From Candidatus Kerfeldbacteria bacterium (GTDB lineage: Bacteria; Patescibacteriota; Patescibacteriia; UBA9570; XYC2-FULL-38-9), in contig JACPGJ010000008.1 in NCBI GenBank assembly GCA_016182555.1, forward strand, positions 299,147-363,146: DNA of 64,000 nucleotides, in the 5' to 3' direction. Shown here piece by piece: positions 26,189-62,932 of this stretch. Position 1 is the first letter of the stretch; every line of letters begins with the position of its first letter. The notes below the pieces were generated by a model. It worked only from the letters and a program-made list of their open reading frames with translations. It was not told the DNA's origin and ran no database searches. The translations under genes were made by a program, and so were the position numbers.

Positions 26189-27064
26189 TTACTTTTGAGT
26201 TGTACAAGTAAAATGATCGCCAGGAGTGGTGCAGGTGACGCGACCTTGCTGGTCAGTGCGGAAAACCACCGCCCCACTCTGTTGCAAACGCTTCAGTGTT
26301 GCGAACGTTGGGTGGCCATATTTATTCTGCGCTCCAACAGAAATCAACGCCACTTCCGGCGTGGTTGCCGCTAACAATTCCGGCGTCGTACTATATCGAC
26401 TACCGTGGTGAGACACTTTTAATAAATCAATATCCATACTCGATTGACCAAATTCTGGGTAGCTTGCGACAATCTCATTTTCAATACGGCCAGAGACATC
26501 CCCCATCATGAGCGCCGTCGCATCTTTATAATGCAAAATGATTGAAACCGAATTATCATTCGTCTCGGGTTCTACATGTGCCGGGTCTGCCGGATTCAAA
26601 AACTCTAACCACACCCCGTCTTCTATATCTAAACGCCAGCCACGATATGCTTGCCAGACTTCTATGCCATACCGCTCTGGCCACGCCTGTACCGCCGCCG
26701 CCGCTGCCGTGTCTTTTGGCGCGCCACTAATAATCAGATGTCCAATGGTATAGCGTTCCGGTAATTCACCCAAGCCCGCAATATGGTCGCTATCCGGATG
26801 GGTCGAAATCACTAATTCCAATGTATGGTCATAAGGTGGCATTGCTTCCCCTAATTGATAGAGCACACTGCGATCTGGACCACCGTCGACCAAAATATCA
26901 TTCCCCTGCGGCGTGCGAATATAAATAGAATCTCCCTGGCCAACATTAAGCGCAGTAATGCTGAGCGTATGTGTTGTGGTCGGTTGCCATTGCCATAGGC
27001 AGTACGTCACGAAACCCGCAACACCAAGAACAATGAGTAAAAAATTTTTTTGACGTGTACTCAT
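26189..27064 (-). CDS. comEC: ComEC/Rec2 C-terminal metallo-beta-lactamase domain protein (separate ORF)
   Basis: Start at MSTRQKNFLL (27064) forming an ATGA overlap with the upstream N-terminal ComEC ORF; TM then MBL motifs (ALNVGQGDS, ISTHPDSDHIAGL, VSHHGS). Confidence 0.8.
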   Translation of the reverse strand: MSTRQKNFLLIVLGVAGFVTYCLWQWQPTTTHTLSITALNVGQGDSIYIRTPQGNDILVDGGPDRSVLYQLGEAMPPYDHTLELVISTHPDSDHIAGLGELPERYTIGHLIISGAPKDTAAAAAVQAWPERYGIEVWQAYRGWRLDIEDGVWLEFLNPADPAHVEPETNDNSVSIILHYKDATALMMGDVSGRIENEIVASYPEFGQSSMDIDLLKVSHHGSRYSTTPELLAATTPEVALISVGAQNKYGHPTFATLKRLQQSGAVVFRTDQQGRVTCTTPGDHFTCTTQK

Positions 27065-36680: not shown

Positions 36681-39600
36681 TTACGCACATTTCGAATAGC
36701 CGCATCCATGGCACATCATGCATCCTTCAGCCATAGCGAGTACTGATCCGCACTCTGGGCATTCTGGTGCCACTCCGGCATCAGCAATAGAACTCGCTTT
36801 CATCGAAATGGTTGTTTGATGGGTGGTTGCCGTATCTGTTTGCGTGACGGTTACGGATTCTTGCGTTTTCACTGGGCTACTGTTGCCTAATAATTCATCT
36901 GCTGTTTGCAATGGTGCTGGCGTCGCGGCAAACTGTAAATTCAACGTGCCTTGAGCAGAATTCACATGGTTAGCCAGTACCTGAGCAATCGCATCAGCAA
37001 TCGAGAGAATTTGACCATTCTTTCCCCACGTTGGTGCTGGGCCACGAATACCTTTAATTTGATCTACCACTGTTTCTACTGGAATACCAGAACGCAATGC
37101 CAAAGAAACTAAACGGCAGATCGCTTCTGATTTCGCGGCAAAAAACCCGCCCGATTTTCCAATAGTCGCAAACACCTCAAATGGTCGGCCAGCTTCATCG
37201 TGGTTAATAGTCACGAACATTGTACCGTAACCGGTTTTAATTTTATAGGTGAATCCAGGCACCATCTCTGGGCGAGAACGTGGTGATGGAGGTGTTAAAC
37301 CAGGCCCCGTGTTCATTGGTTGGGCAACTGCAGGTGCTGCAGCAGCGAATTGAGCGGGAACCGCTGTTTGTACCTCTTCTTTTTTCACTTCTTTTTTATC
37401 ACCAGCATCTTTTTTATCTAAAGATTCCAATACAGAAATATCACGAGAGCCATCACGATAATAGGTCACCCCTTTGCATCCCATTTTGTACGCTTGCATA
37501 TACAATTCTTTCACCTGTTCCATGGTATGTTCATTTGGCGCGTTCACCGTTTTGGAAATAGATGAATCAGTATATTTTTGTGCCACAGCTTGCATGTTCA
37601 CGTGTTCCATTGGACTCAGCTCCTTGGCACTCACAAAATATGCTGGTTTTTCTTCTTCTGGCACATTCGGGTGTGCTTTTCGCCACTCTTCATATAATGG
37701 ATGGTAGACAATATGTTCTCCTAAACGATCTTTCCGTTTGAAAGCAAAATCATATACCGGTTCAATACCAGAACTGACGCCGGCAAGAATACTCGTTGTA
37801 CCAGTTGGTGCTTGGGTAAGAATCACCGCATTACGCACGCCGAATTGTGCAATATCGGCTTGTAAGTCGCGCGGTAAACGTTGAATAAACTTCCCTTGCA
37901 TATATTTTTCGCTTTCAAAACCGGGAAACGCTCCTTTCTCTTTCGCAATTTCCATAGACATGCGGTAGGATTCATCGCGAATCACCCGATAGACCTCTTC
38001 ACACCATGCGACAGCTTCTTCTGATCCATAACGAATCTTCATTTTAATGAGCGCATCGCCCAAACCCATGGTACCCAAACCGGTACGACGAATTTTTTTC
38101 TGCATCTCTTCATTTTCTTTGAAGAAGTACGGAGTTGAATCAATCACGTTATCTAAGAAGCGAATCGCCGTGTGCACTGTTTCTTTGAGCGCAGCGGTAT
38201 CAAAGACCCCATCGTTCACAAATGCTGCCAAATTCACCGCACCCAAATTACACACACTCCATGCGCCAAGACCTTGTTCCCCACAATTGTGCACTATTAA
38301 CCCATTGGCTGCAAAAGAATGTGTCACTGGTTCTGTCAGATCATACACCATTTCCTGACCAAGATGCTCTAACCCGACAAATGTCGCTACAAATTTTTGT
38401 GTATATGGCCCATCGGTATATTGACTAAGTAATTTTGTTAGCTTTTGTTGTTTTGCAGATGATAAAAATCCTACGGATGTAGCAAATATCTTCAACCCGG
38501 CCTTGCTAATCACCAAATCATGTTGCGCCTGACAAGGATATGATGCTAATCCACCGCGACCATCGGGCAGTTCTCGCACTTGTTCCATGCGCCGATTCGC
38601 ATACAAACGACTCACGATACCAAAATTTAACAGTAATTGTTGCACTTCTTTCAATAGATCTTCTGAAATAGAAGTGAGCCGAATACTCACACCTTTTTCT
38701 GGTGAACCAGCGACATGTCCATCGGCAGTAAACAACCCTTGCAAAAATCCCTTCTGCATTTCTGCTGTGCCTTCCCATACTGGTTGTGGCACACGCAACT
38801 TCGATTCTACCGTCATCCCTACGTTAGTGAATATCTGATTCAACCGTTGGGATGAAATCCGAGCTTCATCACGGCCGGCAACTTCGGCAACAGTCACCGC
38901 AACAGATGAATGTTTGCCATTGGTATTGTTGGTTGAAGCGTTAATCGCACCATTAACGGCTTGAACAAGCCGCGGTGCTACTTCTCGTTTTTCTTCACCA
39001 AAAAATGACAGTACCGCCGTATGCTTAGATTGATTAAAATGACCATCACCGATAAACCAGCCTAACACTTGACCCCAAGATTGATCACCGGTGGTCCCAA
39101 AACCGCCAACGCGATCAAGTAATAATATCTGATCACCTGTTTGCAAATGCTGCGCTTCTACCCAACCACGTGCTGTGCGTACTTGATGATTGGCCGTCAG
39201 TTTGAGTTCATATCCTTCTTTGGTTTGTAATCGATACACATCTTTGATGCCCGTTTCAATAATTTGCGATGTGCGCTCCGTTGACTGTGCACCCAAACGA
39301 CTATCAATAGTCAAGTTCACTTGCTGTTGCGCCTCGTATAATGCTTTGATCGTTTTGAGCCCGTCGGTCGTTGAAACACGCGTATCGCCCGTGACGCACG
39401 GATTCACACAAATAATTTTTTCAAAATACCACGTATTTGATTCCTTGTTATAACGCTCCATAAACACCAAGCCCGGCTCACCAGATGCATGAGCAGATTC
39501 GCAAATCAAATCCCACAATGTGCGGGCTTTGATTGTTTTATAGACTTTACCTCCCCATTTTAAATCCCAATCTCCGTTCTGTTCCACGGCTTCCATGAAC

Positions 39601-40205
39601 CGATCAGAAACACAGACAGAAAGATTGGCATTCGTGACCAAACCCATGGTGCGTTTTACGGTAATAAACTCTTCAATGTCTGGGTGATCGTCATTCAGCA
39701 TTAACATCAGTGCACCGCGGCGAGATCCACCTTGAATCACCAAGCCAGTCGCATGCGAATACAACCCACCAAAAGACACCGCACCAGAAGCAGTACCATT
39801 CACTCCTTTGACATACGCACCACGTGGACGCAGTGAAGAAAGGTTCACACCCACGCCGCCACCACGAGACATAATTTCGACCATGGTTTTCACTGAATCA
39901 AAAATGCCACCGCGACTATCTTCTGGAGATGGGATGACATAACAATTATAGAATGTGAGGTCTACACCAGAACCGGCGCCAGCCAAAATACGACCACCGG
40001 GTAAAAACTTGAATCCTTCCAAAGCCTGATAAAACTTCTCTTCCCATTCTTTCTTTTTTTCAACCGTGGTTTCAATGCTGGCAATACCGCGAGCAACGCG
40101 GTGCCACATCTGTTCGGGGGTATCTTCAACACGACTCCCGTTTTCATCTTTGAGTGCGTAGCGATCAAAAAACACTTTTTGGCGCAATCCAGTAAGGTGC
40201 TCCAT
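36681..40205 (-). CDS. nrdJ: Adenosylcobalamin-dependent (class II) ribonucleotide reductase NrdJ, interrupted by a 371-aa intein
   Basis: Active-site motif split as ...ICVNP | CVTGDTRV...LIVHN | CGEQGL (NPCGEQ of class II RNR). The gene start (40203-40205) was confirmed by eye to be cat/ATG. C-terminal CxxC...CxxC tail (CPECGS...CMMCHGCGYSKCA). Intein 38286..39398 with LGWFIGDGHF and LQGLFTADGHV. Confidence 0.9.
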   Translation of the reverse strand: MEHLTGLRQKVFFDRYALKDENGSRVEDTPEQMWHRVARGIASIETTVEKKKEWEEKFYQALEGFKFLPGGRILAGAGSGVDLTFYNCYVIPSPEDSRGGIFDSVKTMVEIMSRGGGVGVNLSSLRPRGAYVKGVNGTASGAVSFGGLYSHATGLVIQGGSRRGALMLMLNDDHPDIEEFITVKRTMGLVTNANLSVCVSDRFMEAVEQNGDWDLKWGGKVYKTIKARTLWDLICESAHASGEPGLVFMERYNKESNTWYFEKIICVNPCVTGDTRVSTTDGLKTIKALYEAQQQVNLTIDSRLGAQSTERTSQIIETGIKDVYRLQTKEGYELKLTANHQVRTARGWVEAQHLQTGDQILLLDRVGGFGTTGDQSWGQVLGWFIGDGHFNQSKHTAVLSFFGEEKREVAPRLVQAVNGAINASTNNTNGKHSSVAVTVAEVAGRDEARISSQRLNQIFTNVGMTVESKLRVPQPVWEGTAEMQKGFLQGLFTADGHVAGSPEKGVSIRLTSISEDLLKEVQQLLLNFGIVSRLYANRRMEQVRELPDGRGGLASYPCQAQHDLVISKAGLKIFATSVGFLSSAKQQKLTKLLSQYTDGPYTQKFVATFVGLEHLGQEMVYDLTEPVTHSFAANGLIVHNCGEQGLGAWSVCNLGAVNLAAFVNDGVFDTAALKETVHTAIRFLDNVIDSTPYFFKENEEMQKKIRRTGLGTMGLGDALIKMKIRYGSEEAVAWCEEVYRVIRDESYRMSMEIAKEKGAFPGFESEKYMQGKFIQRLPRDLQADIAQFGVRNAVILTQAPTGTTSILAGVSSGIEPVYDFAFKRKDRLGEHIVYHPLYEEWRKAHPNVPEEEKPAYFVSAKELSPMEHVNMQAVAQKYTDSSISKTVNAPNEHTMEQVKELYMQAYKMGCKGVTYYRDGSRDISVLESLDKKDAGDKKEVKKEEVQTAVPAQFAAAAPAVAQPMNTGPGLTPPSPRSRPEMVPGFTYKIKTGYGTMFVTINHDEAGRPFEVFATIGKSGGFFAAKSEAICRLVSLALRSGIPVETVVDQIKGIRGPAPTWGKNGQILSIADAIAQVLANHVNSAQGTLNLQFAATPAPLQTADELLGNSSPVKTQESVTVTQTDTATTHQTTISMKASSIADAGVAPECPECGSVLAMAEGCMMCHGCGYSKCA
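38286..39398 (-). mobile_element. NrdJ intein at the catalytic-cysteine site, with LAGLIDADG endonuclease domain
   Basis: Residues 270-640 of the ORF; junction codons verified manually (tgc 39396-39398; aat 38286-38288, tgt 38283-38285). Confidence 0.85.
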
Positions 40206-47354: not shown

Positions 47355-48593
47355 TTACGAATTAGTATTGTCGTTATTGCTATTGTTGTTGGCATTACCA
47401 TTGGTATTCTTCGATTTCGCTGTATAGGTAAAACTCGCCACCATCATATCAAAGGTCGTACGGAAGTGAATAGTTGTTGTTGTACCATAATTATACACAA
47501 TACCAATGATATACTGATCATTTGCCAAATAATAGGTTAAACCATTATTCACAACAATACCCTCTAGCCCACCGACCGTTGTAGTTTCCAAATCATCCAC
47601 CGTGATATCACTATAGAGTGATGCGTACCACTGAGCAGCACTTTGGTGCTTTGTATTTTCGGTTACAATGACTTCCACAAACTCCCCTTCAATCGTGTCT
47701 GGAGTAAAAATAATCTCACTATTACTGTCGTTCAACGATTCCACTAACCACTGTGCCGGATAATCAATTTTCCAAGAAAATTCGCCATTCTTTTCTTCAA
47801 TAACCAAACCACTATTCAACAAACTCTGGTTCGCTTTTGTTGGAGAGTATAGGTTCGCTACTTCCGTTCCGTCGATATACCCATCTTTATCTGTATCCGG
47901 TAAGCCCGATTGGGTGCCATAGATTTTCTCTTCTTCATCAGTTAAATGGTCTTTATCTTTATCTGAAGCATCGGTCACTTCTTCACCATTCGTTGGCGTG
48001 TTGGTATTGATTGCTGTATTTGTATTGCCATTGATATTGGCGTTCAGGTTAGTATTGGCATTGGCGTTTGCGTTGGTATTATCATTGAGGCCAACGTTGG
48101 CGTTCTGATTTGCTGGTTGGTTTGTATTAGCCGGATTCGTATTCGTGTTGGCATTTGCCACAGATGAAGGAGTGTTCGTATTATTGGTTTGCGCTGGAGT
48201 ATTGCTATTTTTATTTGTCTGTACTGGTTGAGCCTTTTGTTGCAACATAAATACCACCACGACACCAACGACGACTAAAATAAAAAGGATAATCGCTATG
48301 AACAAGAACAATTTCTTTTTTCCACCACGAGCAGAACCGGTTTTTGGAGGCATAAAACGCTCCGGCATCGTATAGACTCGCTCCGGCGTTGGTGAACCCT
48401 GGCCAGGAATAGCACCAGGCCCAGCTGCACCCGTCGTATTTAAAACTGGCACATTCATTGGCCCAGCATTTTGGTTGGGCAATGGGTAAGGTGTTTGTGC
48501 TTGCATCGGAACCGCAGGAGAAAATGGTTGCGGTTGTGGTGGCACAGGTTGTGGTTGTTGAGGCATTCCTGGTGTCTGTTCAAACATAGGCAT
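47355..48593 (-). CDS. Bitopic membrane protein: Pro/Gln-rich N-tail, TM, Asn/Thr low-complexity spacer, TSP3-like Ca-binding repeat, C-terminal globular domain
   Basis: MPMFEQTPGMPQQPQPVPPQPQP..., TM LFLFIAIILFILVVVGVVVVF, NTNTN... low complexity, DTDKDGYIDGTE repeat. Confidence 0.6.
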   Translation of the reverse strand: MPMFEQTPGMPQQPQPVPPQPQPFSPAVPMQAQTPYPLPNQNAGPMNVPVLNTTGAAGPGAIPGQGSPTPERVYTMPERFMPPKTGSARGGKKKLFLFIAIILFILVVVGVVVVFMLQQKAQPVQTNKNSNTPAQTNNTNTPSSVANANTNTNPANTNQPANQNANVGLNDNTNANANANTNLNANINGNTNTAINTNTPTNGEEVTDASDKDKDHLTDEEEKIYGTQSGLPDTDKDGYIDGTEVANLYSPTKANQSLLNSGLVIEEKNGEFSWKIDYPAQWLVESLNDSNSEIIFTPDTIEGEFVEVIVTENTKHQSAAQWYASLYSDITVDDLETTTVGGLEGIVVNNGLTYYLANDQYIIGIVYNYGTTTTIHFRTTFDMMVASFTYTAKSKNTNGNANNNSNNDNTNS

Positions 48594-49207
48594 TATTGGT
48601 TATTGGTGTTTGCTTGTTGAATCACATCTGGCACAGCGAGCATTTTCCCGCTGCCGTTGGGATTATAGAAATTGCGTACCTCTTCGCCATCGGGAAAGCC
48701 ATCCTTATCGGTGTCTTTCTCGTTCGGATTGGTAGAATAAATCTTGACCTCTTGCCGATCAGACAATCCATCATGATCCGAATCCACATCTTTCGGGTCG
48801 GTGCGATAATTTTGTTCTTCAGAATCTAATAATCCGTCGCCATCTGAATCCACAATCGTACCATTCGTATTGGATGCAGCATTAGCCGCTGCATTATTCA
48901 ACGGCTGCACATGATTTAAGTTCTCTTCCGTAACAGGAGCAGATCCTTGTTGCCGACCAGACCAATACTGCCAACCCACAAACAATAAGGCTATAAGCAA
49001 TACCACCCCTGCACCAATCATCACCCATAAACGTTTTTGTGAAATAGACCGTCGAGGCGCCTCTGAATCGATAGTCGTATCGATAGTCGTTGGTACAGCA
49101 TGGACAATAGCTGGAGTAGGCGGAGTAGGATTCACCGAATCAAACAAGTCTTCCACCGGCCCCGGTTGCTGATCATTTGGGAATGTCGACGGTTGATTTG
49201 TTGGCAT
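48593..49207 (-). CDS. Bitopic membrane protein with Pro-rich N-tail and three TSP3-like (DxDxDG) calcium-binding repeats
   Basis: MPTNQPSTFPNDQQPGP..., TM, DSDGDGLLDSEE / DSDHDGLSDRQE / DTDKDGFPDGEE; 1-nt overlap with next gene. Confidence 0.6.
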   Translation of the reverse strand: MPTNQPSTFPNDQQPGPVEDLFDSVNPTPPTPAIVHAVPTTIDTTIDSEAPRRSISQKRLWVMIGAGVVLLIALLFVGWQYWSGRQQGSAPVTEENLNHVQPLNNAAANAASNTNGTIVDSDGDGLLDSEEQNYRTDPKDVDSDHDGLSDRQEVKIYSTNPNEKDTDKDGFPDGEEVRNFYNPNGSGKMLAVPDVIQQANTNNQ

Positions 49208-49213
49208 AGAGAC

Positions 49214-52200
49214 TTAAGGAGTAATAGTATACCACGTTCCTCCTGGGTCAAATTGACTCGTTATACCATAATTATAACAAGAACATTCAGCATTTGAAAT
49301 ATCTTCACACGCATCAAATATCGCTGTCGTGTCGGTATATGCCCCTTCCCCATCATATTCTAAATGAGCATAAATGGAAGCGGTTTGGGAATCGTCAGGG
49401 TTATTCGCATCGACTTTCCACATATACGTAAAGGAATTCGCTGGGCAGAAGAAATGCTGGTTGACGGTATCCCAACAAGTTCCGCCTTCTTGGTCATAAT
49501 ATGCATTATCTTCGGGTGCAGACGGGCAATCCTGCACATGTTCTTCTCCCTCATAAACCCACGGCGTTGATCCGGCGTTCCAAGGGTCAGCTTGATCGGC
49601 AGCATAGAAGATATTGTACTGATCGGTTGGCAATGTTTGACCGAATAGATTACCCAGTGCTCCTTGCCAAGATGGCCACACGCTGGTCGTCATCGTTTTC
49701 ACATACGAACCAAATGTATCACTTTGTGGTCGTGGATAATACCCGTGTTGCGCATAAAAATCATTTGCCAAATTACTAATGGTGGTAATGTCATTCACGC
49801 GCTTGGTGTCACGAATCAATTTCTCTTGGTCAGAATTTTCACATTCCGCATGGCTCAAATTCATGTTAAACCGAACGTTATTGATCAATTGATCGGCAAT
49901 TTTCAATAGGGTCTCTTCGTCGCTAAACGTAAAAAGATAGATGTTATTATAAATTGTTCCATCTAATACATTGCTAGCAGCAACATAATAACTTAATCCA
50001 TCTTGTACCGCTTCATAGCCGTTTACTTGCAATGAAGAGACCTCCCCTGGGTTTGGTACATTTTGAGCATACCATTGGTCTGGGGTGAGGTCTTCGGTGT
50101 TTGGATACACACGAATACCAACCACCTGTTCTTCATTTTCTGGGTTCACAAACAAATATTGTCGGAAAAAATCTCCATCCGGATCAGTGGTAATAATTGG
50201 TTCTTCTGTTAAAGTAGGTAAGCCATTATCTTTACAGTAAAGCAAGTCAAAATTTTGCCGTAAATCATCACTTTCATCTGTATTCGCATATTCCCACACA
50301 TTGTCTTCTCCGCAGAAAAATACATTCACATTGGCTGTAACATCATCCACAGACCAATCTGCTTCCGTGGTGGGAGTTGCCGTGACCGTAATGCCATCTT
50401 CGGCATGATTTTCATCACCGGCCGTGACCGTTTGGGTTTCGGCATTCGGATCACTGCCTAGCTCAACCCAAGCGGTATTATTACAACGCGCATCGTCTTT
50501 ATATGGGCTCCAGGTATATTCCCAACCCATGATATTTGTGGGAATAATTTCTTGATCATCTGATGTATGCATACTCACCGTAAATGTGGTTTGTGCTCCC
50601 GATGAAGTAAACGTATACGTAGCTGTATCACCTTCCGAAGAACTCCCATTGTCATTATTGATAAGTACCAGATGATCTGGTTCACATTCGTTAGCTGCCG
50701 TCATGAAATAGATCTCTTGGGTGCCTTGCTCCACAGCCAGCGTATTGGCTTCGCTCACGATTCCGGTGTCTGTATCTGTATTACTCACGAACGTCAATCG
50801 ATATACCGTATTTGTTTTCCAGCCATCATTTGGCGTCACGGTGATTGTTTTTCCATCTGCGCTATCAACCGTAATCGCAACAACCGTATCATTAGCAATA
50901 CCTTCAGAAAAATCATCGGTTGAGTAACCATCTTCATAGTCTAATGCGTTGAGTCTGACCGTATCGGTTGCCGAATCGCCGGTCGCCAAAAAACCAGTCA
51001 TCGGTTCACTAAATACCGCACTAAATTCTCTATTTGGACAAACCTCCGTATCACCATTGACTGGATCAGAAGAAACAAATGTTGGTCTTTCTGCACAATA
51101 GGTTTCGCCAGTATCATCCACGACACATTCTCCATCACTACCACACACAGTATCTTCTGTTCCTTCCGTACATTCACCGCTAGAATCATCATCGCACACA
51201 CCATCTACACAATAATATCCCTCTTCACAATCATCGGCGGTGATACAAGATGTACCAAAATCTAACCCATTGCTCAAACAAGCATTGACCGACACCACTG
51301 CTGGTCCAGAGGTGGCGCCATACGGAACAGTGGCAGAAGATTTGCCTGTTCCCACATACGTATAGTTGTCACCACTAATATAATCGATGGTATCATCAAA
51401 CGTACTTTCCGGATCAGCACCTTCTACTACCTCATCAGTAAATAAATCTCCTGTACTTTGGCCATCGGCTGGGTTTCCAAATTGGTCACCCATAAATGTG
51501 ATGGAATCGCCATCCTGAGTTCCCTCCGCTGAAGCGGCATATCCTTCAACCGAAGAGAGCTTACACAATACCGGTACTCCGGAATCTGGCACATCGGCAC
51601 CACTGCTACACTGTGCCGTGGTAGAAAAAGTTTTATCATCATTACTATTATACCCATTATTGGAAACCACCACCGCATAAGACTGCCCTGTATCTAACGC
51701 TTCCGGTACATTGGCAATAATTTGCGTATTTGACCACCCATCGGTGCAATACAATGCCGCTTCCTCACCACCAAATGTCACCGAGGCATCGGAATCATAA
51801 GATCCAAAAAAGCAGCCGTTAATCGTTGTGGGTCCACCAGCAGGACCGGAATCTTGTACAATGCTTGTCACCACCGGTGTGCACACACCTTCTTCAGAAC
51901 AGGTAGCTTGGTCACTGCCGCAGGATTCCTGACATTGTTCATCTGTTGTACAGGTATTACAAAACTCCGCAGCTTGGCAGATACCATCTCCAGAACAGCA
52001 GCCGCTGCCGCATTCATTATTGGCGCTACAAGAAACCGAAAACTCTAATGAGTTGGAACAATATTCTGAAGCAGCAGCACAATCCACATCTCCACCTTGT
52101 GTTACGGCACGGAACCCATCTTCTCCACTCACCGCACCAGAGGCTACTTCTGTACTTACGCGCTCTGGTGTCCAGGCAGTTGCTTCTTCGGACGCAGCAA

Positions 52201-55200
52201 CACGTGTACCGGAATCCGCTTCCGTTCCATAATCATCATCACCTAAAAAGCTTGCGAGTCCTTCTTCGTCACCCAATGCTTTTCCATAGATCGTTACAGC
52301 ATCTTCTTCTGCGCCTGCTTCTGGGCTAATAGCACAAATACCGGGGTAAAAATTTTGATCAATATGATAATCCGTACCGGCTTCCGTCGAATCACCATAT
52401 TGTGTTTCTACTTGTAGTTTATAATCCTGTGTTGGTAAATCGAGCGGCATTTCAACAATAATTTGACTATCATCCCAGGTATCTCCACACGTTGCGCTAT
52501 TTGGCCAATCAGTTTCCGTTGAAGTTGCACCATCCAGCGTATTCCAGTACACATTTCCTTTTTGAGAGCCAAACATACACCCTTGAATAGTCACCCAGGT
52601 ACCCTGAATCGCACTATTTGGCGTAAAACTCTTAATCACTGGGGTACAATGTCCGGTATCGGTATTACATGTAGATGTGTTGCCACTCCCATCGCTGCAC
52701 GATGCACAGTCTGCATTGGTCGTACATGCACCAAGATCAACAATAAATTCCGCATCATCTGTTTCCAAATCCACAGCCGTTTGAATCGTTGCCGTTCCTT
52801 CATTCTCTGCATCATCTCCAACAACAAATATTTCCATCAGTGGATCATGATCATCTTCACCGGTCGCAAATTTCGCTACCGTATGATCTGCTGGGTCAGT
52901 GCTCGGAATACTCCAATTCCAACTATACGAAGAACTATCCAGTAATGCACAAGCCGGGCCATAGGCATTTCCGCTATATACTTCACTCTGACCATCCGCA
53001 TTTTTAATGGTAGATCTGCTCGGAGAAACATTCACACTCTCAATCGCACACGGCGTTGTGGTGTTATCGGTTTTGAAATGCATGGTATATGCACTTTCCA
53101 TGGCAATACCGGAGGTACCGGTAATACCAGTGGTGAGCGTCAACTGGTACCACGTATTTGGTTGTAAGTAAGATGAATCTGTCCCGGGTCCATCAGTTTG
53201 CCCATCCTGATTACTATCTTGAACTGTTCGATCAATGGCATATTGGAAACCGTAATAGTTCGTACTACCAGAAAGATATGACCACTCCGTATTCGTAAAG
53301 TGCCCATAAACCGGCAATGGTGAAAATGCACTATTGAATGTGTCTCCAGCGTTATATTGTTCTAAAAAAACCGTATCGCTATTGAATGTATCGGTGTTAA
53401 TTTGTTGGTCAAACAGTACCCCAAGAGCAGCATTGATACACGCCCGTTCTTCATTCGGTTGTGGATTTGGTGAAGGGTACACATCTGCTTCGGCATCGCA
53501 AGAATTTAATTCGGCAACACGTGGCCCAGCACTGCACGGGAAATTGTATTCACGACCATTACTACTCAAACCGGTATCGCCATCATAAATTGTTACCCAA
53601 TAATCACCAGGGGTCATGGATTCATTTGTCGTGCCTTGAATAGATGTATCCGTCCAGTCACCGGAAGGAGTTTCCGGATGAAAATAGACGCTAGAATCTG
53701 CCAAAGAAGTAAAGGGTACCTCGCTTCCACCTTGAGCAGTTCCAAAACCATCGCCGGTAATGGTAAAGCTGGCTCCAGCGGAATTATCACAACTGGGCAC
53801 AATTTCACATAAGTTCGGCCGAACATTATCTGAGTAGGTAAATTTTTGAAGATCCGAATAATGGCCATCTGCATGAATCACCTGGATATAGCCCACATCA
53901 CCCGTAACCCATTGGTGTTCTCCGGTGGCATCAGTATAAGTTTCTGGTGCAATCGCCACAATTTCATCATTGGTCCATACATTACCGCAGGCCGTTGGTT
54001 GCGCCATGGTGGATGTGCGAGTACCATCCAAGGAACGCATAATCACGGTGCCAGGCGTATCACCATAATTATCTCCACTCATCGTAATATATTGACCAAC
54101 TGCCCCATCACTTGGATCTACGGATTGAATATACGGGCTATACACATCAACTTCAGAAGATGATGGGTCACTTTCTTCTCCAGCCACACTCACGCGCAGC
54201 GTGGAATCATTCGTGCCGACTGGCGTACGCAATGATAATTGATCGCTGCGTTGATCTGCTTCATCCATACAAATATCTCCAGCCGACGTATTATCTTGCA
54301 TGTTACCGTAATGATCGGTATTGAAACAGGTATTCACGGTTTCTGCGGCGTAAATATTGCCATCTTGAAAAATGACCTCGGCATGCGGCGCCAAATACAA
54401 ACCTGATATGGCGAGTGTGCCTTGGCCATATTCCACGCAAACACCGGCTTCGCAGCTACCAGAGCCACATTCGGTATTGGTTGTACAACTTTGACCGCTG
54501 TGTAAGCCGGCATAGTCACCATAATAATCTCCACCAGGATTCACCGATTCAATCACCGGTGTACAGGAAGCATTATCTCCAGTTTCCCATGTGATGGGGT
54601 CTTCAGTTGCACCCGCGGCCTCATCAAAACCATAAAAGTTATCCACGGTGGAACCTTCAGCAATACCGTCACCATCGCCATCGAGTGCGTTTCCACAATA
54701 ATCGGTAAGCGCACCTGCAAAATCGTTACTGGCATCGCCACCATATAATCGCGTACTATAATATGAAAAACTATTCAACGTGGTTTCTGGTCGAACTTGA
54801 GCGTAATCAAAATCTCCACCGAAACTCCACCCTTTTAATGCGAGTGGGTCCGCCCAATCTGGTGCAAATGGCACATCTGGTGTACCGGCGCTATCTAAGA
54901 CAAATGATTGATCATCGTTGAATGTGGACGTCAACATTGGCTCAGAAAAATCGAAGTTAATCACTGTATTCGTACAGACCTCTGCTTCACCATCTGCCGG
55001 AAATGGTGAATTGGAATGAACTTGTACTGTTGGTGGTGTCTCATCTTTTTCACTACCTGTCGTAAACTGCCAAATATAGGAAGAGGTGAGCGCCAACCGA
55101 TCATCAATACCATCATCTGGCGTATCGTCATAACTGAATACACCATCAGTTCCACCCACAATAACCGCTTCATACGTGGTGTTTATTTCTAAATCTGTAT

Positions 55201-55936
55201 CTGGAACAAAATTGAATGTCGAGGTGGTGTCCCCCGGACCAAATGCAATAACGCCAGCAACCGTATCACCCACACAGCGGTTTTCCTGACACAAGCCTGA
55301 CCCACAAACATTATTACTTGAACATTCCCCGCCGTCTGCTACACCCCCAGGAATATGGAGGTACCAGGTATCTGGTGTCACGGTACTGGTATCAATATCT
55401 TTGCTCATGCGTACTTGAACGGCACAGAGGGAAGCACCCGTTTCTCCTGATTCCGGATCTGTAGACAACACATAAAAACTGGAATCGCTGGTGGGAATAT
55501 ACCCACCACCACTCGTGCCGCTAGCATCATCTATAGACCCACCAGTTGCATCACTAAAAAACCCAATAAGCCAGAGCACCAGGCCCCATGAGACCATAAT
55601 AATCACCAGGCCAATCCCCGCATTGCGTAATACCGCCTTGGCTTTGTTCACTTTATCTGGGTTACCGGCGGAGGTCAGCCACATGTAGCCGCCATAGATA
55701 ATAAAAATAACCGCCACCAAGGCCATGAGCGATAGAGCAACATTCACAATATCTACCACGATGGAAATAATATCGTTATTTCCTAAAGAGCTGGCAATAC
55801 CGGCGTAATCTGTTGTTATTTGGGCGTATGCAGGAGTGACAGTTGCAAATATTCCGAAAAGAAAAAAGCTCATGGCGGTAAAACAACCACGCATGGCTTT
55901 TTTCAGATTTCTATTTTTCGGAAGACGTTCCCGCAT
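49214..55936 (-). CDS. Giant (2240 aa) cysteine-rich surface protein: signal peptide + pilin-like double-TM N-domain, then repeated PSI-like Cys modules each followed by IPT/TIG-like domains
   Basis: SP MRGCFTAMSFFLFGIFATVTPAYA; two hydrophobic helices flanking YGGYMWLTSAGNPDKVNKAKAVLRNAGIG (TrbC/VirB2- or T4SS-pilin-like topology). At least five CxxxxCGSGxC modules followed by TPVI(x)S(x)xP...G...VTIxG..FG segments. Confidence 0.7.
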   Translation of the reverse strand: MRERLPKNRNLKKAMRGCFTAMSFFLFGIFATVTPAYAQITTDYAGIASSLGNNDIISIVVDIVNVALSLMALVAVIFIIYGGYMWLTSAGNPDKVNKAKAVLRNAGIGLVIIMVSWGLVLWLIGFFSDATGGSIDDASGTSGGGYIPTSDSSFYVLSTDPESGETGASLCAVQVRMSKDIDTSTVTPDTWYLHIPGGVADGGECSSNNVCGSGLCQENRCVGDTVAGVIAFGPGDTTSTFNFVPDTDLEINTTYEAVIVGGTDGVFSYDDTPDDGIDDRLALTSSYIWQFTTGSEKDETPPTVQVHSNSPFPADGEAEVCTNTVINFDFSEPMLTSTFNDDQSFVLDSAGTPDVPFAPDWADPLALKGWSFGGDFDYAQVRPETTLNSFSYYSTRLYGGDASNDFAGALTDYCGNALDGDGDGIAEGSTVDNFYGFDEAAGATEDPITWETGDNASCTPVIESVNPGGDYYGDYAGLHSGQSCTTNTECGSGSCEAGVCVEYGQGTLAISGLYLAPHAEVIFQDGNIYAAETVNTCFNTDHYGNMQDNTSAGDICMDEADQRSDQLSLRTPVGTNDSTLRVSVAGEESDPSSSEVDVYSPYIQSVDPSDGAVGQYITMSGDNYGDTPGTVIMRSLDGTRTSTMAQPTACGNVWTNDEIVAIAPETYTDATGEHQWVTGDVGYIQVIHADGHYSDLQKFTYSDNVRPNLCEIVPSCDNSAGASFTITGDGFGTAQGGSEVPFTSLADSSVYFHPETPSGDWTDTSIQGTTNESMTPGDYWVTIYDGDTGLSSNGREYNFPCSAGPRVAELNSCDAEADVYPSPNPQPNEERACINAALGVLFDQQINTDTFNSDTVFLEQYNAGDTFNSAFSPLPVYGHFTNTEWSYLSGSTNYYGFQYAIDRTVQDSNQDGQTDGPGTDSSYLQPNTWYQLTLTTGITGTSGIAMESAYTMHFKTDNTTTPCAIESVNVSPSRSTIKNADGQSEVYSGNAYGPACALLDSSSYSWNWSIPSTDPADHTVAKFATGEDDHDPLMEIFVVGDDAENEGTATIQTAVDLETDDAEFIVDLGACTTNADCASCSDGSGNTSTCNTDTGHCTPVIKSFTPNSAIQGTWVTIQGCMFGSQKGNVYWNTLDGATSTETDWPNSATCGDTWDDSQIIVEMPLDLPTQDYKLQVETQYGDSTEAGTDYHIDQNFYPGICAISPEAGAEEDAVTIYGKALGDEEGLASFLGDDDYGTEADSGTRVAASEEATAWTPERVSTEVASGAVSGEDGFRAVTQGGDVDCAAASEYCSNSLEFSVSCSANNECGSGCCSGDGICQAAEFCNTCTTDEQCQESCGSDQATCSEEGVCTPVVTSIVQDSGPAGGPTTINGCFFGSYDSDASVTFGGEEAALYCTDGWSNTQIIANVPEALDTGQSYAVVVSNNGYNSNDDKTFSTTAQCSSGADVPDSGVPVLCKLSSVEGYAASAEGTQDGDSITFMGDQFGNPADGQSTGDLFTDEVVEGADPESTFDDTIDYISGDNYTYVGTGKSSATVPYGATSGPAVVSVNACLSNGLDFGTSCITADDCEEGYYCVDGVCDDDSSGECTEGTEDTVCGSDGECVVDDTGETYCAERPTFVSSDPVNGDTEVCPNREFSAVFSEPMTGFLATGDSATDTVRLNALDYEDGYSTDDFSEGIANDTVVAITVDSADGKTITVTPNDGWKTNTVYRLTFVSNTDTDTGIVSEANTLAVEQGTQEIYFMTAANECEPDHLVLINNDNGSSSEGDTATYTFTSSGAQTTFTVSMHTSDDQEIIPTNIMGWEYTWSPYKDDARCNNTAWVELGSDPNAETQTVTAGDENHAEDGITVTATPTTEADWSVDDVTANVNVFFCGEDNVWEYANTDESDDLRQNFDLLYCKDNGLPTLTEEPIITTDPDGDFFRQYLFVNPENEEQVVGIRVYPNTEDLTPDQWYAQNVPNPGEVSSLQVNGYEAVQDGLSYYVAASNVLDGTIYNNIYLFTFSDEETLLKIADQLINNVRFNMNLSHAECENSDQEKLIRDTKRVNDITTISNLANDFYAQHGYYPRPQSDTFGSYVKTMTTSVWPSWQGALGNLFGQTLPTDQYNIFYAADQADPWNAGSTPWVYEGEEHVQDCPSAPEDNAYYDQEGGTCWDTVNQHFFCPANSFTYMWKVDANNPDDSQTASIYAHLEYDGEGAYTDTTAIFDACEDISNAECSCYNYGITSQFDPGGTWYTITP

Positions 55937-56710: not shown

Positions 56711-56862
56711 GGAGTATTCACCGACCTCTCTAGTACATTATGTAATAAAATTCACTCTTTGAATATACCATTTATAGATGACTGGTGTCAAACACTATTT
56801 CTTACGCCCGCAAGAATATTTCATTCCCGTTCTATGTAATACTAATCGTCATGGCCGTAGTC

Positions 56863-59347: not shown

Positions 59348-62300
59348 TTACTCTGTCGTCGAAAATGCCTGCCATTTGGTAAACGCCGAGCAAGATTTCT
59401 TTTTGCATGCCTTCACGCGTACCTGATAGTTGGTATTTGCAGACAATTTTTTGATCTCTTTTTGAGTTTTCTTCACTGTGGTATATTTCGTCCACTGTTT
59501 CTGTTTTTTTACACCGTTTGGCCGTACCTGCACCACATATCGGGTAATTTTTTTCTTGCCCTGTGGTTTCTTCCATGTAGCAAGTGCAGATTCATCGGTG
59601 ATATTCTTCACCCGTAAGTGACGCGGTTTATTGATCTTTACTCCAGCGGCAGTTTTTAATTGATTGTTGTACACAATACCCACTTGGGAAAAATGCTGCA
59701 AAGTGAACGTAATGGAGCCCTGGGTTTCATCACCTTCAATGAGGTCTTGTGATGCATTGTCCACATCTTGCCACGCACCAAGTTCCTCGTCCCAATATTT
59801 TGGCACCAGAATAGATTGATCCGTAATACCCAACCGTTCTAACGAATCTTTTGTATAATTCAGTGTCAACGTGATCGCCGAATTGAAATCTCCGGAGATC
59901 AATACACCGTCGGCATCATAAACTTCCAATTGACGTGCCGGACCAAATGGTGAATCAAAGGATGTTTTAATGGCGTTCAATTCCGGTTCAATGGTAATAG
60001 TGACGTTGCCGGAGTTCTGAATTGCTCCAGCGGGTATATCGAGCTGGAATCCACCATCGTCAAGGACAATCGTTTTTGCTTGCGACGAGTCGAATGTTTC
60101 GGTTACTGAATCTGGAATTTCAAATACCGATTCACCCAAAGTAACATTTTTCGTAATATTGTCATCATTTTTCCCCACATTCACCTCCACATCATCCTGC
60201 GTATTGTACCATACACGCTCACCATTATCATTCACGATTTCCGTGCTGCACCACAGGTGCCAAGTGCCTTCCAACGCATTAAGAGAAAATTCATTATCGA
60301 AACTTTCATCCCAGGCACTATACCCTTCTTCTGCCCATGCACCGCACCAGAGACGATCCACATCTTCTGCGGCCAGGCCAGATGCTTCAGAGAATTTCGC
60401 CTTTCCGGTAATCGTTGCGGTAGCTTCACGAAATGTAAAGTTCAGTGTTTGGTCACTCGATTTTTTGGTAATTTTCACACGCTGGGATTCCGGGCCAATC
60501 AGGTTGGAATAATCGGAATGTACGCCAACCCAACATTCATATTCGTGGCCAGTGACGAGCCCCACAACCGCCACACCGTCTTGGCCAGACTGTGAACCAT
60601 TTTCAATCACGCGTCCGGCATCAAAATCTCCCTTAGCACTATCTTCCAATTCCGGCCAGTTGCCACAACCTACCCAGGCATTTGCAACCGGGTCTCCATT
60701 ATTATCTTCCAAAAATGCGGTCACCGAACCACTCACTTTCTGAACGGTAATCGTTTTCGTTTTCGTTTCTCCTTCGGCAATGGTCACATCTTTTTCCTGT
60801 GCCCAACTGGCGATATAGTCATTGCGATCTTCAAACCACACACCCACACGATAGCTTCCTGGCGCAACGCGCAATGTTCCCACGCCGCCTTCTGGGCGCG
60901 TATCCGACCACCCACCATCTTCACTATTGGCGTAGATTTGTGCGTTATCGGAATCAATGAATTCATTATCCGTATCTTTAATATTCACCGTGATCGTTGC
61001 TGAACGTTCGACTAACGTGAATTCTAACGCCACATCTTCACCATCCGTAAATTCTTGCTGCTGTTCTCCAATGGCTTGATAATTTTGATCGTTAATCCAG
61101 ACATTGCAAAAATATTCCCCTCCAATAGCACCAAAACTACCGGTACCATATTCCACAGAGCCGCCAAAACCATAGCCTTCATTACTCCAACAGTTTGCCC
61201 AGCCGTTTACTGCTGCCACACTTCCATCTTCAGCAAGCGTCGTCACATTGACCGTCAGTGTCGTTGCTGTCAGCGTAAAGGTCAACGAACCGGTATCACC
61301 AGATTCAACGGTCACCTTCTCTTCCGGGCCCGCATAAATATATTGAGTCGTGCTCCACGTAGATGGACGAATGGTCCAATCTCCCTCATATAAATACAAA
61401 ACCGCTTCTCCGTTTTCGTCAGTTTGCGCATTATTCCACCCACCTTCTTGCTGCCAAGCGTCTACATACAAATCAGGAACAGGGTTGCCATTGTCATCCA
61501 ACAATGTAACGGTATATACCACATCGCGTTCTTTTAATGCAATGGTGCCAAGGTCTAGATCCTCATCCGCTTGTACCGTGACTGTTGCTGCATCCCAATA
61601 GGTGTGCTCTTCTGCATTATTTGAATTATATTGAACAAAATAGGTCGTACTGCCTATAGAGCGTGCGCGCAACGAAGTGGATTGAATATCAGAAGAATTG
61701 CCTCCTACAACGGCGATAGAAAAAGTGCCATCTTCAGCATTTACATTTCCACCAAACCAATATTGGTCATTCCACATTGATACCCAACCAGAAGCCGGAA
61801 ATGAACCATCCGGATTTGTAAACACGGCGGTGACGGTTGCATCTGCGCGCTGTACTTCAAAATCAAGTGTTTCAGATTCTTCGGAAGAATCATCGGCAAA
61901 CGACACATGCTGACAATTATTACCATTGGGCATATACCAATCTTTCTCAACACGGTCGCCATTTTCATCGTATTTATCACCTAAACAAATATCATATTCG
62001 CCTCCAGAAATAGCCATTGAATATACACCATTTTCATCAACGTCCGCGCTACTCCATGAACCCGTACCGTTGGCGTTCACAGAAACAGCGGTGACCGGAT
62101 CACCAGTATCGGCATACGTAATCGTTCCATTCACGATTTTACTTGCTTCCTCAACCATAATATCTTGGTTCACGGTTGAGCCGGAATAGGTAAAGGATAC
62201 AGAAGTGTTAAATAAACCAGTGGAAGTATCCGGGTAAACTTGAATATTCACCGTATCCCCAGAGTCAAACCCAGGATTTTGAACAGTATAATATCCCCAT

Positions 62301-62932
62301 TCATCGCTATTAAACCAGGCATAGAGCGACCAATCCTCATTATACACATTGCCATATAACTGCACTGGGTTGCTATCTGGATCCGTCAGTGTCCCATACG
62401 CCAAAGGAGTGCCAAGAATAAATGGATCACTCACGGTGGATATGTTGTCACCGTCTGACACTGAAGACATATCCGTTCGAGATGCTCGAATAGCGAACCG
62501 ATAGCCGCCCACATCCGATGGGTTCACCACATTATTGAGTGTCGTGGTATATGTACCCGCAGGAAGATCGCTCGTATTGGAAAAATCAAAAATAAAGGAA
62601 TTATCGCTAGCAACAATATCTCCATCAATGCCTGTCAACGTGCTATTGCTGAAATCACCCTGGCAAGCGGTATAATCAGCCATACAATTCGTAGGCGAAA
62701 ATTCAATATTAAAACCCGTGAGCGCATCTATAACTGCTGCTGTTGTAAAACTCACGCTGTAATTGGTGGTCGCTCCAGGGGTAAGCGATTCTGGCGTGAC
62801 CGAGATGCTCGTAATCGTTTCGTCTGGTATTGTTGTTGCGTACGTTGGTGTGGTGGTGGCCATACCAAATAGAACGAATGAGGCGAGTGTGATGCTTTGA
62901 ATCACTCGCCGCACAAAAAATCTGTTGTTCAT
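59348..62932 (-). CDS. Secreted 1194-aa multidomain surface protein (Ig-like/CarboxypepD_reg-like beta-sandwich repeats) with C-terminal Lys-rich FN3 domain
   Basis: Signal peptide MNNRFFVRRVIQSITLASFVLFGMATTTPTYA; T/S/D/G-rich beta-rich repeats; C-terminal PRHLRVKNITDESALATWKKPQGKKKITRYVVQVRPNG...YQVRVKA (FN3). Confidence 0.65.
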   Translation of the reverse strand: MNNRFFVRRVIQSITLASFVLFGMATTTPTYATTIPDETITSISVTPESLTPGATTNYSVSFTTAAVIDALTGFNIEFSPTNCMADYTACQGDFSNSTLTGIDGDIVASDNSFIFDFSNTSDLPAGTYTTTLNNVVNPSDVGGYRFAIRASRTDMSSVSDGDNISTVSDPFILGTPLAYGTLTDPDSNPVQLYGNVYNEDWSLYAWFNSDEWGYYTVQNPGFDSGDTVNIQVYPDTSTGLFNTSVSFTYSGSTVNQDIMVEEASKIVNGTITYADTGDPVTAVSVNANGTGSWSSADVDENGVYSMAISGGEYDICLGDKYDENGDRVEKDWYMPNGNNCQHVSFADDSSEESETLDFEVQRADATVTAVFTNPDGSFPASGWVSMWNDQYWFGGNVNAEDGTFSIAVVGGNSSDIQSTSLRARSIGSTTYFVQYNSNNAEEHTYWDAATVTVQADEDLDLGTIALKERDVVYTVTLLDDNGNPVPDLYVDAWQQEGGWNNAQTDENGEAVLYLYEGDWTIRPSTWSTTQYIYAGPEEKVTVESGDTGSLTFTLTATTLTVNVTTLAEDGSVAAVNGWANCWSNEGYGFGGSVEYGTGSFGAIGGEYFCNVWINDQNYQAIGEQQQEFTDGEDVALEFTLVERSATITVNIKDTDNEFIDSDNAQIYANSEDGGWSDTRPEGGVGTLRVAPGSYRVGVWFEDRNDYIASWAQEKDVTIAEGETKTKTITVQKVSGSVTAFLEDNNGDPVANAWVGCGNWPELEDSAKGDFDAGRVIENGSQSGQDGVAVVGLVTGHEYECWVGVHSDYSNLIGPESQRVKITKKSSDQTLNFTFREATATITGKAKFSEASGLAAEDVDRLWCGAWAEEGYSAWDESFDNEFSLNALEGTWHLWCSTEIVNDNGERVWYNTQDDVEVNVGKNDDNITKNVTLGESVFEIPDSVTETFDSSQAKTIVLDDGGFQLDIPAGAIQNSGNVTITIEPELNAIKTSFDSPFGPARQLEVYDADGVLISGDFNSAITLTLNYTKDSLERLGITDQSILVPKYWDEELGAWQDVDNASQDLIEGDETQGSITFTLQHFSQVGIVYNNQLKTAAGVKINKPRHLRVKNITDESALATWKKPQGKKKITRYVVQVRPNGVKKQKQWTKYTTVKKTQKEIKKLSANTNYQVRVKACKKKSCSAFTKWQAFSTTE

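Follow-up and report, generated by a model that had tools for sequence, protein, structure and literature searches.

A conserved three-gene locus of ABY1-class Patescibacteria combines a giant protein bearing a VirB2-like pilin hairpin with two TSP3-repeat membrane proteins

Patescibacteria are the sole monoderm bacteria in which a type IV secretion system (T4SS) is combined with VirB2-like pilins (PMC12102498, PMC12857230, PMC10633639), and the pilins are essential in Southlakia (PMC10633639, PMC12857230). VirB2-like pilins and pilin arrays have been described in the phylum, the pilin gene lying near virB4 in 1135 of 1948 VirB4-containing assemblies, and no PrgB-like adhesin was detected (PMC12102498). 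Very large proteins from other candidate phyla radiation (CPR) lineages are surface-targeted (PMC13059738). Here we analysed a stretch of 64,000 nucleotides (the window, whose numbering is used throughout) from a Candidatus Kerfeldbacteria metagenome-assembled genome (MAG; Patescibacteria, class ABY1), in which three adjacent genes encode a giant protein with a pilin-like N-terminus and two small membrane proteins. An earlier annotation made from the letters of the DNA (the original prediction) had placed three minus-strand open reading frames (ORFs) here, and their coordinates were recovered exactly:

49214..55936, minus strand: gene 1, ORF of 2240 amino acids (aa; 239 kDa, pI 4.05), the predicted pilin-anchored giant surface protein.
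48593..49207, minus strand: gene 2, ORF of 204 aa, predicted bitopic protein with thrombospondin type 3 (TSP3) repeats.
47355..48593, minus strand: gene 3, ORF of 412 aa, predicted bitopic protein with TSP3 repeats and a PsbP-like domain.

Six nucleotides separate genes 1 and 2, and one nucleotide is common to genes 2 and 3 (TAATG), as had been noted. In NCBI, gene 1 has a 100% identical counterpart, an "Ig-like domain-containing protein" that Candidatus Kerfeldbacteria encodes on a 598,550-bp contig, and gene 3 corresponds to the NCBI "hypothetical protein HYV32_05580". The reading that we favour, with a probability of about 0.5, is that the trio constitutes a vertically inherited cell-envelope module of ABY1-class Patescibacteria, formed by a hairpin-anchored giant fibre and two calcium-binding partners. 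Judging from the sequences, this module is probably a cell-contact apparatus, directed to other cells or to a host. It combines known kinds, a VirB2-like pilin, a giant immunoglobulin-like (Ig) adhesin and TSP3 partners, in a new way. In agreement with the original prediction, which recognised no named system, neither the three-gene module nor pilin-anchored giants were found described in the literature searched, and the source organism is, as had been supposed, a small-genome bacterium, in this case of the CPR.

The N-terminus of gene 1 had been expected to hold a signal peptide and two hydrophobic helices around a polar loop. This order was observed, with hydrophobic segments at aa 54-91 and 101-130 flanking a basic loop:

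55823..55936, minus strand: aa 1-38 of gene 1, signal peptide; its n-region is basic and its core hydrophobic, and signal peptidase I is predicted to cut at AYA/Q.
55547..55777, minus strand: aa 54-130 of gene 1, VirB2-like pilin hairpin, in which the basic loop SAGNPDKVNKAKAVLRNAG lies between two hydrophobic helices.

The NCBI start of gene 1 is Met15. The sequence suggests that the protein is cleaved at AYA/Q, and the loop has K/K/K/R, which is consistent with the positive-inside rule. The T4SS_pilin profile (PF18895) matched gene 1 with 34.7 bits over the whole protein, 41.5 bits over the first 120 aa and 37.4-41.5 bits on N-terminal pieces, against a Pfam threshold of 26.6. The similarity to TrbC/VirB2 (PF04956) that had also been proposed was not reproduced, since the first 120 aa reached only 13.9 bits against a threshold of 27.9; a faint precomputed PF04956 match was seen in one orthologue (P0008). 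With NF045849 (Mbov_0395 family pilin-like conjugal transfer protein), gene 1 scored 32.3-35.9 bits, under the cut-off of 40, and NCBI has given this name to another orthologue (P0010).

Amino acids 1-135 of gene 1 were collinear with ten stand-alone pilins of 114-148 aa at 38-45% identity, with 11 invariant columns including A38, Q39, G83, W86, T88, G91, A99 and G109, and the stand-alone pilins end where the Gly/Ser linker of gene 1 begins. Since the collinear small pilins stop at this linker, gene 1 is, by sequence, a VirB2-like pilin complete in itself and extended at its C-terminus by 2100 aa. With PF18895 above its threshold and an end-to-end pilin alignment, the N-terminal helices do not score only as a generic signal anchor. 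By the positive-inside rule and by analogy with the VirB2/TraA topology, the 2100-aa extension would lie outside the cell. The two stand-alone pilins closest to gene 1 (P0181 and P0208) are on contigs of only 929 and 600 bp. Compared with the VirB2-like Patescibacteria pilins (PF18895; the arrays of Southlakia epibionticum and Nanosynbacter lyticus TM7x), gene 1 shares the signal peptide, the two hydrophobic helices, the basic loop and the phylum. However, it is about 20 times longer, its hairpin is followed by a 2100-aa ectodomain, and it lies neither in an array nor near virB4, but in a string of housekeeping genes. With 2240 aa it does not conform to a small protein made essentially of the hairpin. 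Pilin-ectodomain fusions were not mentioned in the literature searched on Patescibacteria pilins.

To place the hairpin among its relatives, aa 1-135 of gene 1 were searched with HMMER against 1.84 billion representatives, which gave 25,878 matches at E<=1e-3 and 1,860 at E<=1e-10, and the best 153 were reclassified with a hidden Markov model built from the stand-alone pilins. Two to 17 hairpins per polypeptide were present in 91 of the 153 best relatives, while 18 were stand-alone pilins under 200 aa, six had a single hairpin on 200-499 aa, and in 35 one hairpin formed the N-terminus of a 541-6060-aa protein. Among these 35, the C-terminal module of gene 1 was present in 24 and absent from 11. 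Because 35 of the 153 best relatives are built in this manner, the hairpin appears from sequence to be a common N-terminal base of large ectodomains in CPR. Tandem hairpin arrays were seen in P0162-P0166, P0170, P0202 and P0245, the last of which has at least 14 hairpins in 1775 aa; such sequences represent polytopic proteins, polyproteins that signal peptidase cuts up, or else gene calls that were fused.

The same hairpin bears many unrelated ectodomains and also forms tandem polytopic arrays, and the module was never found beside T4SS genes: no T4SS or type IV pilus gene was detected in the 64-kb window, nor any T4SS gene in the 8-10 kb on either side of the module at ten related loci (L001-L008, L030 and L031). 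These three points favour the hairpin as mainly a membrane anchor, a view to which we give roughly even odds. The pilus-tip role suggested earlier is thus left without positional support, neither the window nor the 8-10 kb around the module holding a T4SS or type IV pilus gene.

The hairpin may instead serve in a pilus. A T4SS encoded elsewhere in the genome would then extract gene 1 and let it enter, at low stoichiometry and in the tip or the shaft, the conjugative-type pilus of small PF18895 pilins, by which the 2100-aa adhesin would be shown far from the cell. This would parallel the modular type IV pilins of Streptococcus sanguinis, in which PilB reportedly carries a vWA module and PilC a lectin module; the concept of an N-terminal pilin with an adhesive module is shared, and VWA domains are found in some relatives of gene 1, as in the modular type IV pilins. 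However, PilB and PilC belong to another pilin superfamily, with a class III prepilin signal in place of the Sec signal peptide, and a single alpha-1 helix in place of the VirB2-type hairpin, of gene 1, and the passenger of gene 1 is an order of magnitude larger. The C-terminus of the F-type pilin faces the pilus exterior and tolerates peptide fusions. Gene 1 also belongs to PF18895, is fully collinear with and 38-50% identical to stand-alone pilins, and retains the invariant positions. T4SS with VirB2-like pilins exist in the phylum and are essential in Southlakia (PMC12102498, PMC12857230, PMC10633639), and the Kerfeldbacteria, listed in class ABY1, have VirB4 in most of their genomes (PMC12102498 Table S1). 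Against this, the module never adjoins T4SS genes in about 24 loci, compared with 1135 of 1948 VirB4 assemblies with a pilin gene near virB4, and VirB4 is listed as absent in RIFOXYC2_FULL_38_9 (PMC12102498 Table S1), a genome which bears the module (L009) and which, being a MAG, is possibly incomplete. Moreover, it is sterically extreme for a 9-kDa pilin to bear a passenger of 225 kDa, the PF04956 and NF045849 scores are under their cut-offs, and the arrays of 2-17 copies show that the hairpin is not always a free polymerising subunit. On balance, a modular T4SS pilin seems to us rather unlikely.

Beyond the hairpin, most of gene 1 is an array of beta-sandwiches:

50297..55477, minus strand: about 16 divergent Ig-like beta-sandwich domains (Big_5, IPT/TIG) and seven small disulfide knots, aa 154-1880, from Pfam, PDB profile matches and Cys clusters.

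The original prediction had assigned IPT/TIG-like sandwiches to this region. IPT/TIG domains (PF01833) are indeed present, with 51.8 bits over four stretches and PDB matches to CGTase domain D, but they make up only half of the recognised Ig-like domains, the other half being Big_5. In the tiled Pfam scan, TIG domains were placed at aa 601-701, 712-794 (weak) and 1354-1438, and the family profile compared with PDB sequences added one at about aa 1098-1190. Big_5 (PF13205) reached 87.8 bits over four stretches (aa 154-293, 298-357, 922-956 and 1616-1723); the stretches at 298-357 and 922-956 cover part of the 105-position profile, and the full second and third Big_5 domains are read as aa ~298-450 and ~805-956. 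A search of PDB sequences with gene 1 alone gave no match, and the family profile yielded TIG-domain matches only, namely CGTase domain D and one IPT/TIG protein.

The Cys-rich elements differed from their first description. At least five PSI-like knots of the CGSG type, each followed by an IPT/TIG domain, had been claimed; only three C-x5-CGSG-x-C motifs were found (aa 205, 484 and 1303), among seven clusters of four Cys. Two of these knots (aa 205-221 and 484-500) sit inside a beta-sandwich, and the last cluster precedes a Big_5 domain. A PSI domain has about 50 aa and 8 Cys. The knots of gene 1 have 17-29 aa with 4 Cys, being too short and partly within domains, and PF01437 gave no match at E<=1 for the whole protein or at E<=0.05 for tiles, so that the PSI assignment was rejected. 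Of the 69 Cys in gene 1, 61 are kept in at least 80% of 27 orthologues. The ectodomain has 345 acidic and 54 basic residues.

In their very large acidic Ig arrays, surface location and plausible use of calcium, the giant Ig-repeat adhesins (SiiE, the 7651-aa adhesin of Mobiluncus and the large surface proteins of Absconditabacterales) resemble gene 1. However, they are held by type I secretion system retention or LPXTG, whereas gene 1 has a pilin hairpin. They also have recent tandem repeats, while the domains of gene 1 are divergent and its orthologues are collinear, of constant length and in a fixed position. A repeat-expansion adhesin was likewise rejected for gene 1, as there are no tandem DNA repeats in it and the orthologues are collinear.

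Two C-terminal elements had been overlooked by the original prediction:

49877..50248, minus strand: gene 1 PsbP/Mog1-like domain, ~aa 1897-2020, a predicted fold.
49217..49849, minus strand: gene 1 C-terminal head, aa 2030-2240, with a long helix (LIRDTKRVNDITTISNLANDFY..G.YP) packed on a beta-sheet.

The helix of the head has 29 residues, and the modelled head is tentatively type-IV-pilin-like. In the tiled scan, no Pfam family matched the C-terminal 460 aa of gene 1; PilJ_C (PF18223) at aa 1888-1962 (E 0.033) was below threshold and was not used. Conservation of gene 1 peaks in the head (aa 2081-2120, 68% identity), followed by the membrane-proximal Big_5 domain (aa 321-440, 61-64%) and then by the hairpin. 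A homologue search with the head alone returned a single fragment (P0309).

The two small proteins carry their recognisable domains on the predicted outer side:

48647..48850, minus strand: gene 2 TSP3 repeat block, aa 120-187, from PF18884 and a motif scan.
47844..47975, minus strand: gene 3 TSP3 region, aa 207-250, from a motif scan and similarity to the gene 2 repeats.
47424..47822, minus strand: gene 3 extracellular PsbP/Mog1-like domain, ~aa 258-390, a predicted fold.

In each of them a Pro-rich tail (20-26% Pro), one transmembrane (TM) helix and an Asn-rich stalk were found, as had been proposed. Gene 2 has a Pro-rich, predicted cytoplasmic tail and a TM helix (aa 59-82), after which an Asn-rich spacer leads to three canonical DxDxDG..D..E repeats (aa 120, 142 and 165), and the TSP3 assignment held well for it (PF18884, 54.8 bits against a threshold of 25). 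For gene 3 it held in part: one canonical repeat, DTDKDG, is present, the second is degenerate, and in this protein the family stays under the Pfam threshold. Relatives of gene 3 are annotated with PF18884, and the TSP3 D/E positions are invariant in the gene 3 family. The predicted cytoplasmic parts contain conserved motifs. An EDIF/EDLF motif at aa 19-22 (window 49153) is common to the gene 2 orthologues in the family alignment. The tail of gene 3, of 88 aa and 26% Pro, ends in a nearly invariant (I/Y)xTMPExF, whose instance here is YTMPERF at aa 75-80 (window 48371), just before the TM helix. Since RGGKKK precedes this helix, the N-terminus of gene 3 is expected inside the cell; beyond the helix, a stalk of about 90 Asn/Thr-rich aa follows. 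The earlier remark that both proteins begin with MP carries no weight, as it depends on the start codon chosen; the NCBI start of gene 3 is Met3, and the family consensus is MF. As for their kinship, the likeness between genes 2 and 3 is confined to the TSP3 block (49% identity over 55 aa, E 4e-11) and the general architecture. NCBIfam matches of genes 2 and 3 to ZipA, RodZ, FliL, GltJ and anti-sigma factors were far under the cut-offs and lay over TM or low-complexity regions, and these identities were rejected.

Among characterised proteins, Myxococcus CglD and MtsD (PF18884 TSP3) share the DxDxDG..D..E repeats; gene 2 matched CglD (E 2.6e-9) and MtsD (E 1.5e-7) through its repeats. However, the scores are far under the family cut-offs (35 versus 400 bits), and the Myxococcus proteins are lipoproteins, whereas genes 2 and 3 encode predicted small type II membrane proteins with Pro-rich cytoplasmic tails.

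The C-terminal domain of gene 3, also missed by the original prediction, gave no Pfam match. A confident model of it, and of the corresponding part of gene 1, matched solved members of the PsbP/Mog1/DUF1795-like proteins (PsbP, LpqN, Apa, MTC28, DcrB, the type VI secretion immunity proteins Tsi3 and TplEi, and the Eag chaperones), and by these models genes 1 and 3 both carry the PsbP/Mog1-like fold. The likeness is in the predicted fold, at 6-15% identity and with no Pfam match; in the present locus, gene 3 joins the domain to TSP3 repeats and a TM anchor, and gene 1 has it at the predicted tip of the giant fibre. In hhalign, the PsbP-like core of gene 3 aligned with aa 1925-2008 of gene 1 (94.3%, E 1e-7, 76 columns), and on this sequence comparison the two domains are paralogous. 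At one locus (L028), the protein in the gene 2 position also has a PsbP-like domain. More than 140 clusters of gene 3 homologues were found, hypothetical or unnamed, and from Patescibacteria wherever a taxon was given.

The conservation of the locus was then considered. About 27 full-length orthologues of gene 1 were found, collinear, 39-48% identical and of ~2200-2400 aa; the lengths of the more distant ones span 1504-3835 aa, and TSP3 repeats, VWA or Cys-rich DUF4215 modules are present in some of them. Neighbourhoods were sampled at 8 loci through gene 1 homologues, at 20 from a scan of one genome per GTDB species and at 2 through distant gene 3 homologues. The three genes occurred together in 22 of the 22 distinct loci long enough to judge, whether sampled from gene 1 or from gene 3, and the possibility that the two TSP3 proteins are singletons unlinked to the giant was not borne out in any of them. 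The order was (S26 peptidase-hisS-HIT)-rpsU-yqeY-[pilin giant]-[TSP3 protein]-[PsbP protein]-ybeY-dgkA-ftsA-ftsZ, and it was kept even where gene 1 identity was 22-29%. The module was conserved in Kerfeld-, Uhr- and Magasanikbacteria-type loci, lineages which we take to belong to class ABY1. Wherever the gene 3 family turned up in the loci examined, a pilin giant was its neighbour.

Some loci deviated in composition or in label. TSP3 repeats are inside the giant in some lineages (P0029, P0030, P0230 and L019). L007 (Uhrbacteria) and L008 have two pilin-domain genes (~600 aa and 3100-3400 aa) and two TSP3 genes. The shorter of the two pilin-domain proteins (L007 6181-7995 and L008 6179-7990, Uhrbacteria-type; PF18895 and Big_5) is ahead of the giant, and the ~600-aa representatives P0269, P0291, P0293 and P0298 suggest that short pilin-anchored proteins are a separate conserved family. 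Five loci (L014, L017, L019, L025 and L026) are labelled "uncultured Gammaproteobacteria bacterium" and one (L015) "Bdellovibrionales bacterium". L014, L015, L019 and L025 are Kerfeldbacteria-type loci with ftsA/ftsZ 61-84% identical to those of the window, and L017 and L026 end before ftsA/ftsZ and bear only the giant and its partners; the labels on these MAG records are probably taxonomic mislabels or the result of mis-binning.

The surroundings of the trio are housekeeping genes. Nearly all sizeable ORFs of the window are on the minus strand and densely packed, among them lepA, murJ, tgt, a split transketolase, glpX, comEC, glmS and the ribonucleotide reductase (RNR) genes, the latter two with inteins, as well as nrdR, ftsZ, ftsA, dgkA, ybeY, yqeY, rpsU, HIT, hisS and an S26 signal peptidase. 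Gene 3 and ybeY are 14 nt apart, and yqeY and gene 1 are 42 nt apart. The tight linkage noted originally is therefore real but not specific to the trio, as the whole region is co-directional and packed. A promoter-like site was located upstream:

56762..56791, minus strand: candidate sigma-70-like promoter upstream of rpsU, 11/12 matches with an extended -10 TG, by consensus match only.

On the coding strand nothing matched better than this site, downstream of which the minus strand showed no terminator-like site between genes. Since a promoter-like site precedes rpsU and no terminator-like site follows, co-transcription with the neighbours, as one transcript rpsU-yqeY-gene1-gene2-gene3-ybeY-dgkA, is plausible from the sequence. 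A phage or mobile origin was considered and rejected, as PHROGs gave only a TM/low-complexity match, the GC content is unremarkable and the context is housekeeping and syntenic.

Several of these observations weigh against the favoured reading. The hairpin is up to 50% identical to stand-alone pilins in the library search and 38-49% identical to that of its own orthologues at the closer loci; being as similar to the one as to the other, it is not visibly degenerated to a mere anchor. Between Kerfeldbacteria loci, identity is 40-46% for gene 1, ~80% for ftsZ and 60-75% for hisS, and gene 1 evolves no faster than ybeY/yqeY, unlike adhesins that determine host range. From the S26 peptidase to ftsZ, the whole neighbourhood shows the same degree of synteny as the trio, so gene order alone does not single the trio out. 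In addition, the association of the three proteins is argued from linkage and shared domains, and the contact or adhesin role from analogy with domain types.

Equal synteny of the flanks, together with the tight spacing that is general in the region, is what would be expected if there were no module at all and three independent envelope genes merely shared a frozen gene order with their housekeeping neighbours. We consider this highly improbable, since the PsbP-like domain is paralogous between genes 1 and 3, TSP3 repeats are common to genes 2 and 3 and occur within some giants, pilin-domain genes and TSP3 genes have both been doubled in L007 and L008, and members of the gene 3 family were seen only beside pilin giants in the loci examined. 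The same features, namely the paralogous PsbP-like domains, the TSP3 repeats and architecture common to genes 2 and 3 with TSP3 inside some giants, and the two TSP3 genes of lineages with two pilin-domain genes, argue that the three genes work together.

The context bears also on the function. The host-attachment apparatus of the original prediction survives in part, as a probable contact role; the housekeeping and cell-division context and the vertical inheritance fit a constitutive envelope structure at least as well. The giant and its calcium-binding partners could then form an S-layer-like coat or spacer, maybe laid down with division, in place of a dedicated adhesin. Single copy at a fixed site within rpsU-yqeY ... 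ybeY-dgkA-ftsA-ftsZ in every locus, probable co-transcription with those neighbours, a housekeeping-like rate with constant length and collinear domains, the extreme acidic pI beside calcium-binding partners, and tail motifs that could dock to cytoplasmic machinery would all agree with such a scaffold. Big_5 is, as we take it, the SbsA-type S-layer Ig domain. The literature checked names no S-layer protein for ABY1, SLH-domain proteins being described in Absconditicoccaceae, another CPR lineage. However, no S-layer family signature (SLH and others) was found in the Pfam scan, and we know of no lattice-forming S-layer protein that resembles a 2240-aa membrane-tethered fibre. The proximity of ftsA/ftsZ is weak evidence where nearly all genes are co-directional and packed, and the matches to ZipA, RodZ, FliL and GltJ reflect TM and low-complexity content. 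Taken together, a constitutive scaffold is in our judgement decidedly unlikely.

Under the favoured reading of a hairpin-anchored envelope module, gene 1 would be exported by Sec and its signal peptide removed. The two-helix hairpin would hold it in the cytoplasmic membrane, the two termini on the outer side and the basic loop on the cytoplasmic side, and ~2100 very acidic, disulfide-stabilised residues would project outward as about 16 Big_5/TIG sandwiches, a fibre that would measure tens of nanometres when extended. At its tip, the PsbP-like domain and the conserved helix/sheet head would make contact. Genes 2 and 3 would be type II (N-in) membrane proteins whose Asn-rich stalks bring the TSP3 repeats outside, where they may associate with the fibre, possibly in a calcium-dependent manner, and their Pro-rich tails with the EDIF and TMPExF motifs would connect to a partner inside the cell. 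The genes ftsA and ftsZ lie immediately downstream of the locus carrying these tail motifs. A bolder proposal is that the hairpin was recruited in ABY1 as the base of a core surface organelle with a fixed chromosomal site, in which the essential patescibacterial T4SS handles a 230-kDa modular pilin, or this pilin forms polymers together with small pilins, the two calcium-binding partners position it, and the tails are coupled to division or the cytoskeleton (FtsA/FtsZ); this we regard as unlikely.

Other features of the window were also recorded. The RNR large subunit (36681-40205, minus) and GlmS (28654-32007, minus) each contain an intein with Intein_splicing and LAGLIDADG_3 matches; in orthologous loci such as L001 and L031, the RNR genes encode ~785-813 aa and are intein-free. 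A 267-aa ORF between lepA and murJ (3215-4018, minus) has no Pfam match and contains the LAGLIDADG-like motifs LIGFRLGDLNVY and AAGYIDAEANIGIY, by which it is probably a free-standing homing endonuclease. ComEC (26189-28494, minus) is present as two overlapping ORFs, 27061-28494 (DUF4131 and Competence) and 26189-27259 (metallo-beta-lactamase domain); either the gene is split or it holds a frameshift. A second large secreted protein (59348-62932, minus; 1194 aa, with a signal peptide, C-terminal fn3 and a basic tail) is encoded directly upstream of the S26 signal peptidase gene, where related loci have a divergent LytR_cpsA_psr gene. Further secreted proteins are encoded at 19807-21042 (fn3) and 10326-11789 (DUF11). 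No tRNA or Rfam family was found in the window.

The experimentally supported attachment and envelope functions in the literature searched are all from Saccharibacteria, namely type IV pili and the essential T4SS with VirB2-like pilins (PMC12857230, PMC10633639). The locus described here joins a T4SS-type pilin physically to a giant adhesin-like fibre and adds two dedicated partners, and the module was present in every related locus examined, apparently in single copy. Groundwater is rich in ABY1 lineages, which include the Kerfeld-, Uhr- and Magasanikbacteria, and to our knowledge no ABY1 representative has been cultured. If the hairpin is only an anchor, it would be a widespread tether of CPR surface proteins, one that we did not find discussed in the literature searched. 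If it enters a pilus, gene 1 would be the first modular T4SS pilin as far as we know, with a bearing on the purpose of the patescibacterial T4SS. If the organelle proposal is true, giant adhesins borne on pili would form a new class, and host attachment in uncultured CPR could be approached directly. For work on enrichment cultures, the head of gene 1 and the TSP3 proteins are concrete targets for antibodies, metaproteomics and cryo-electron tomography.

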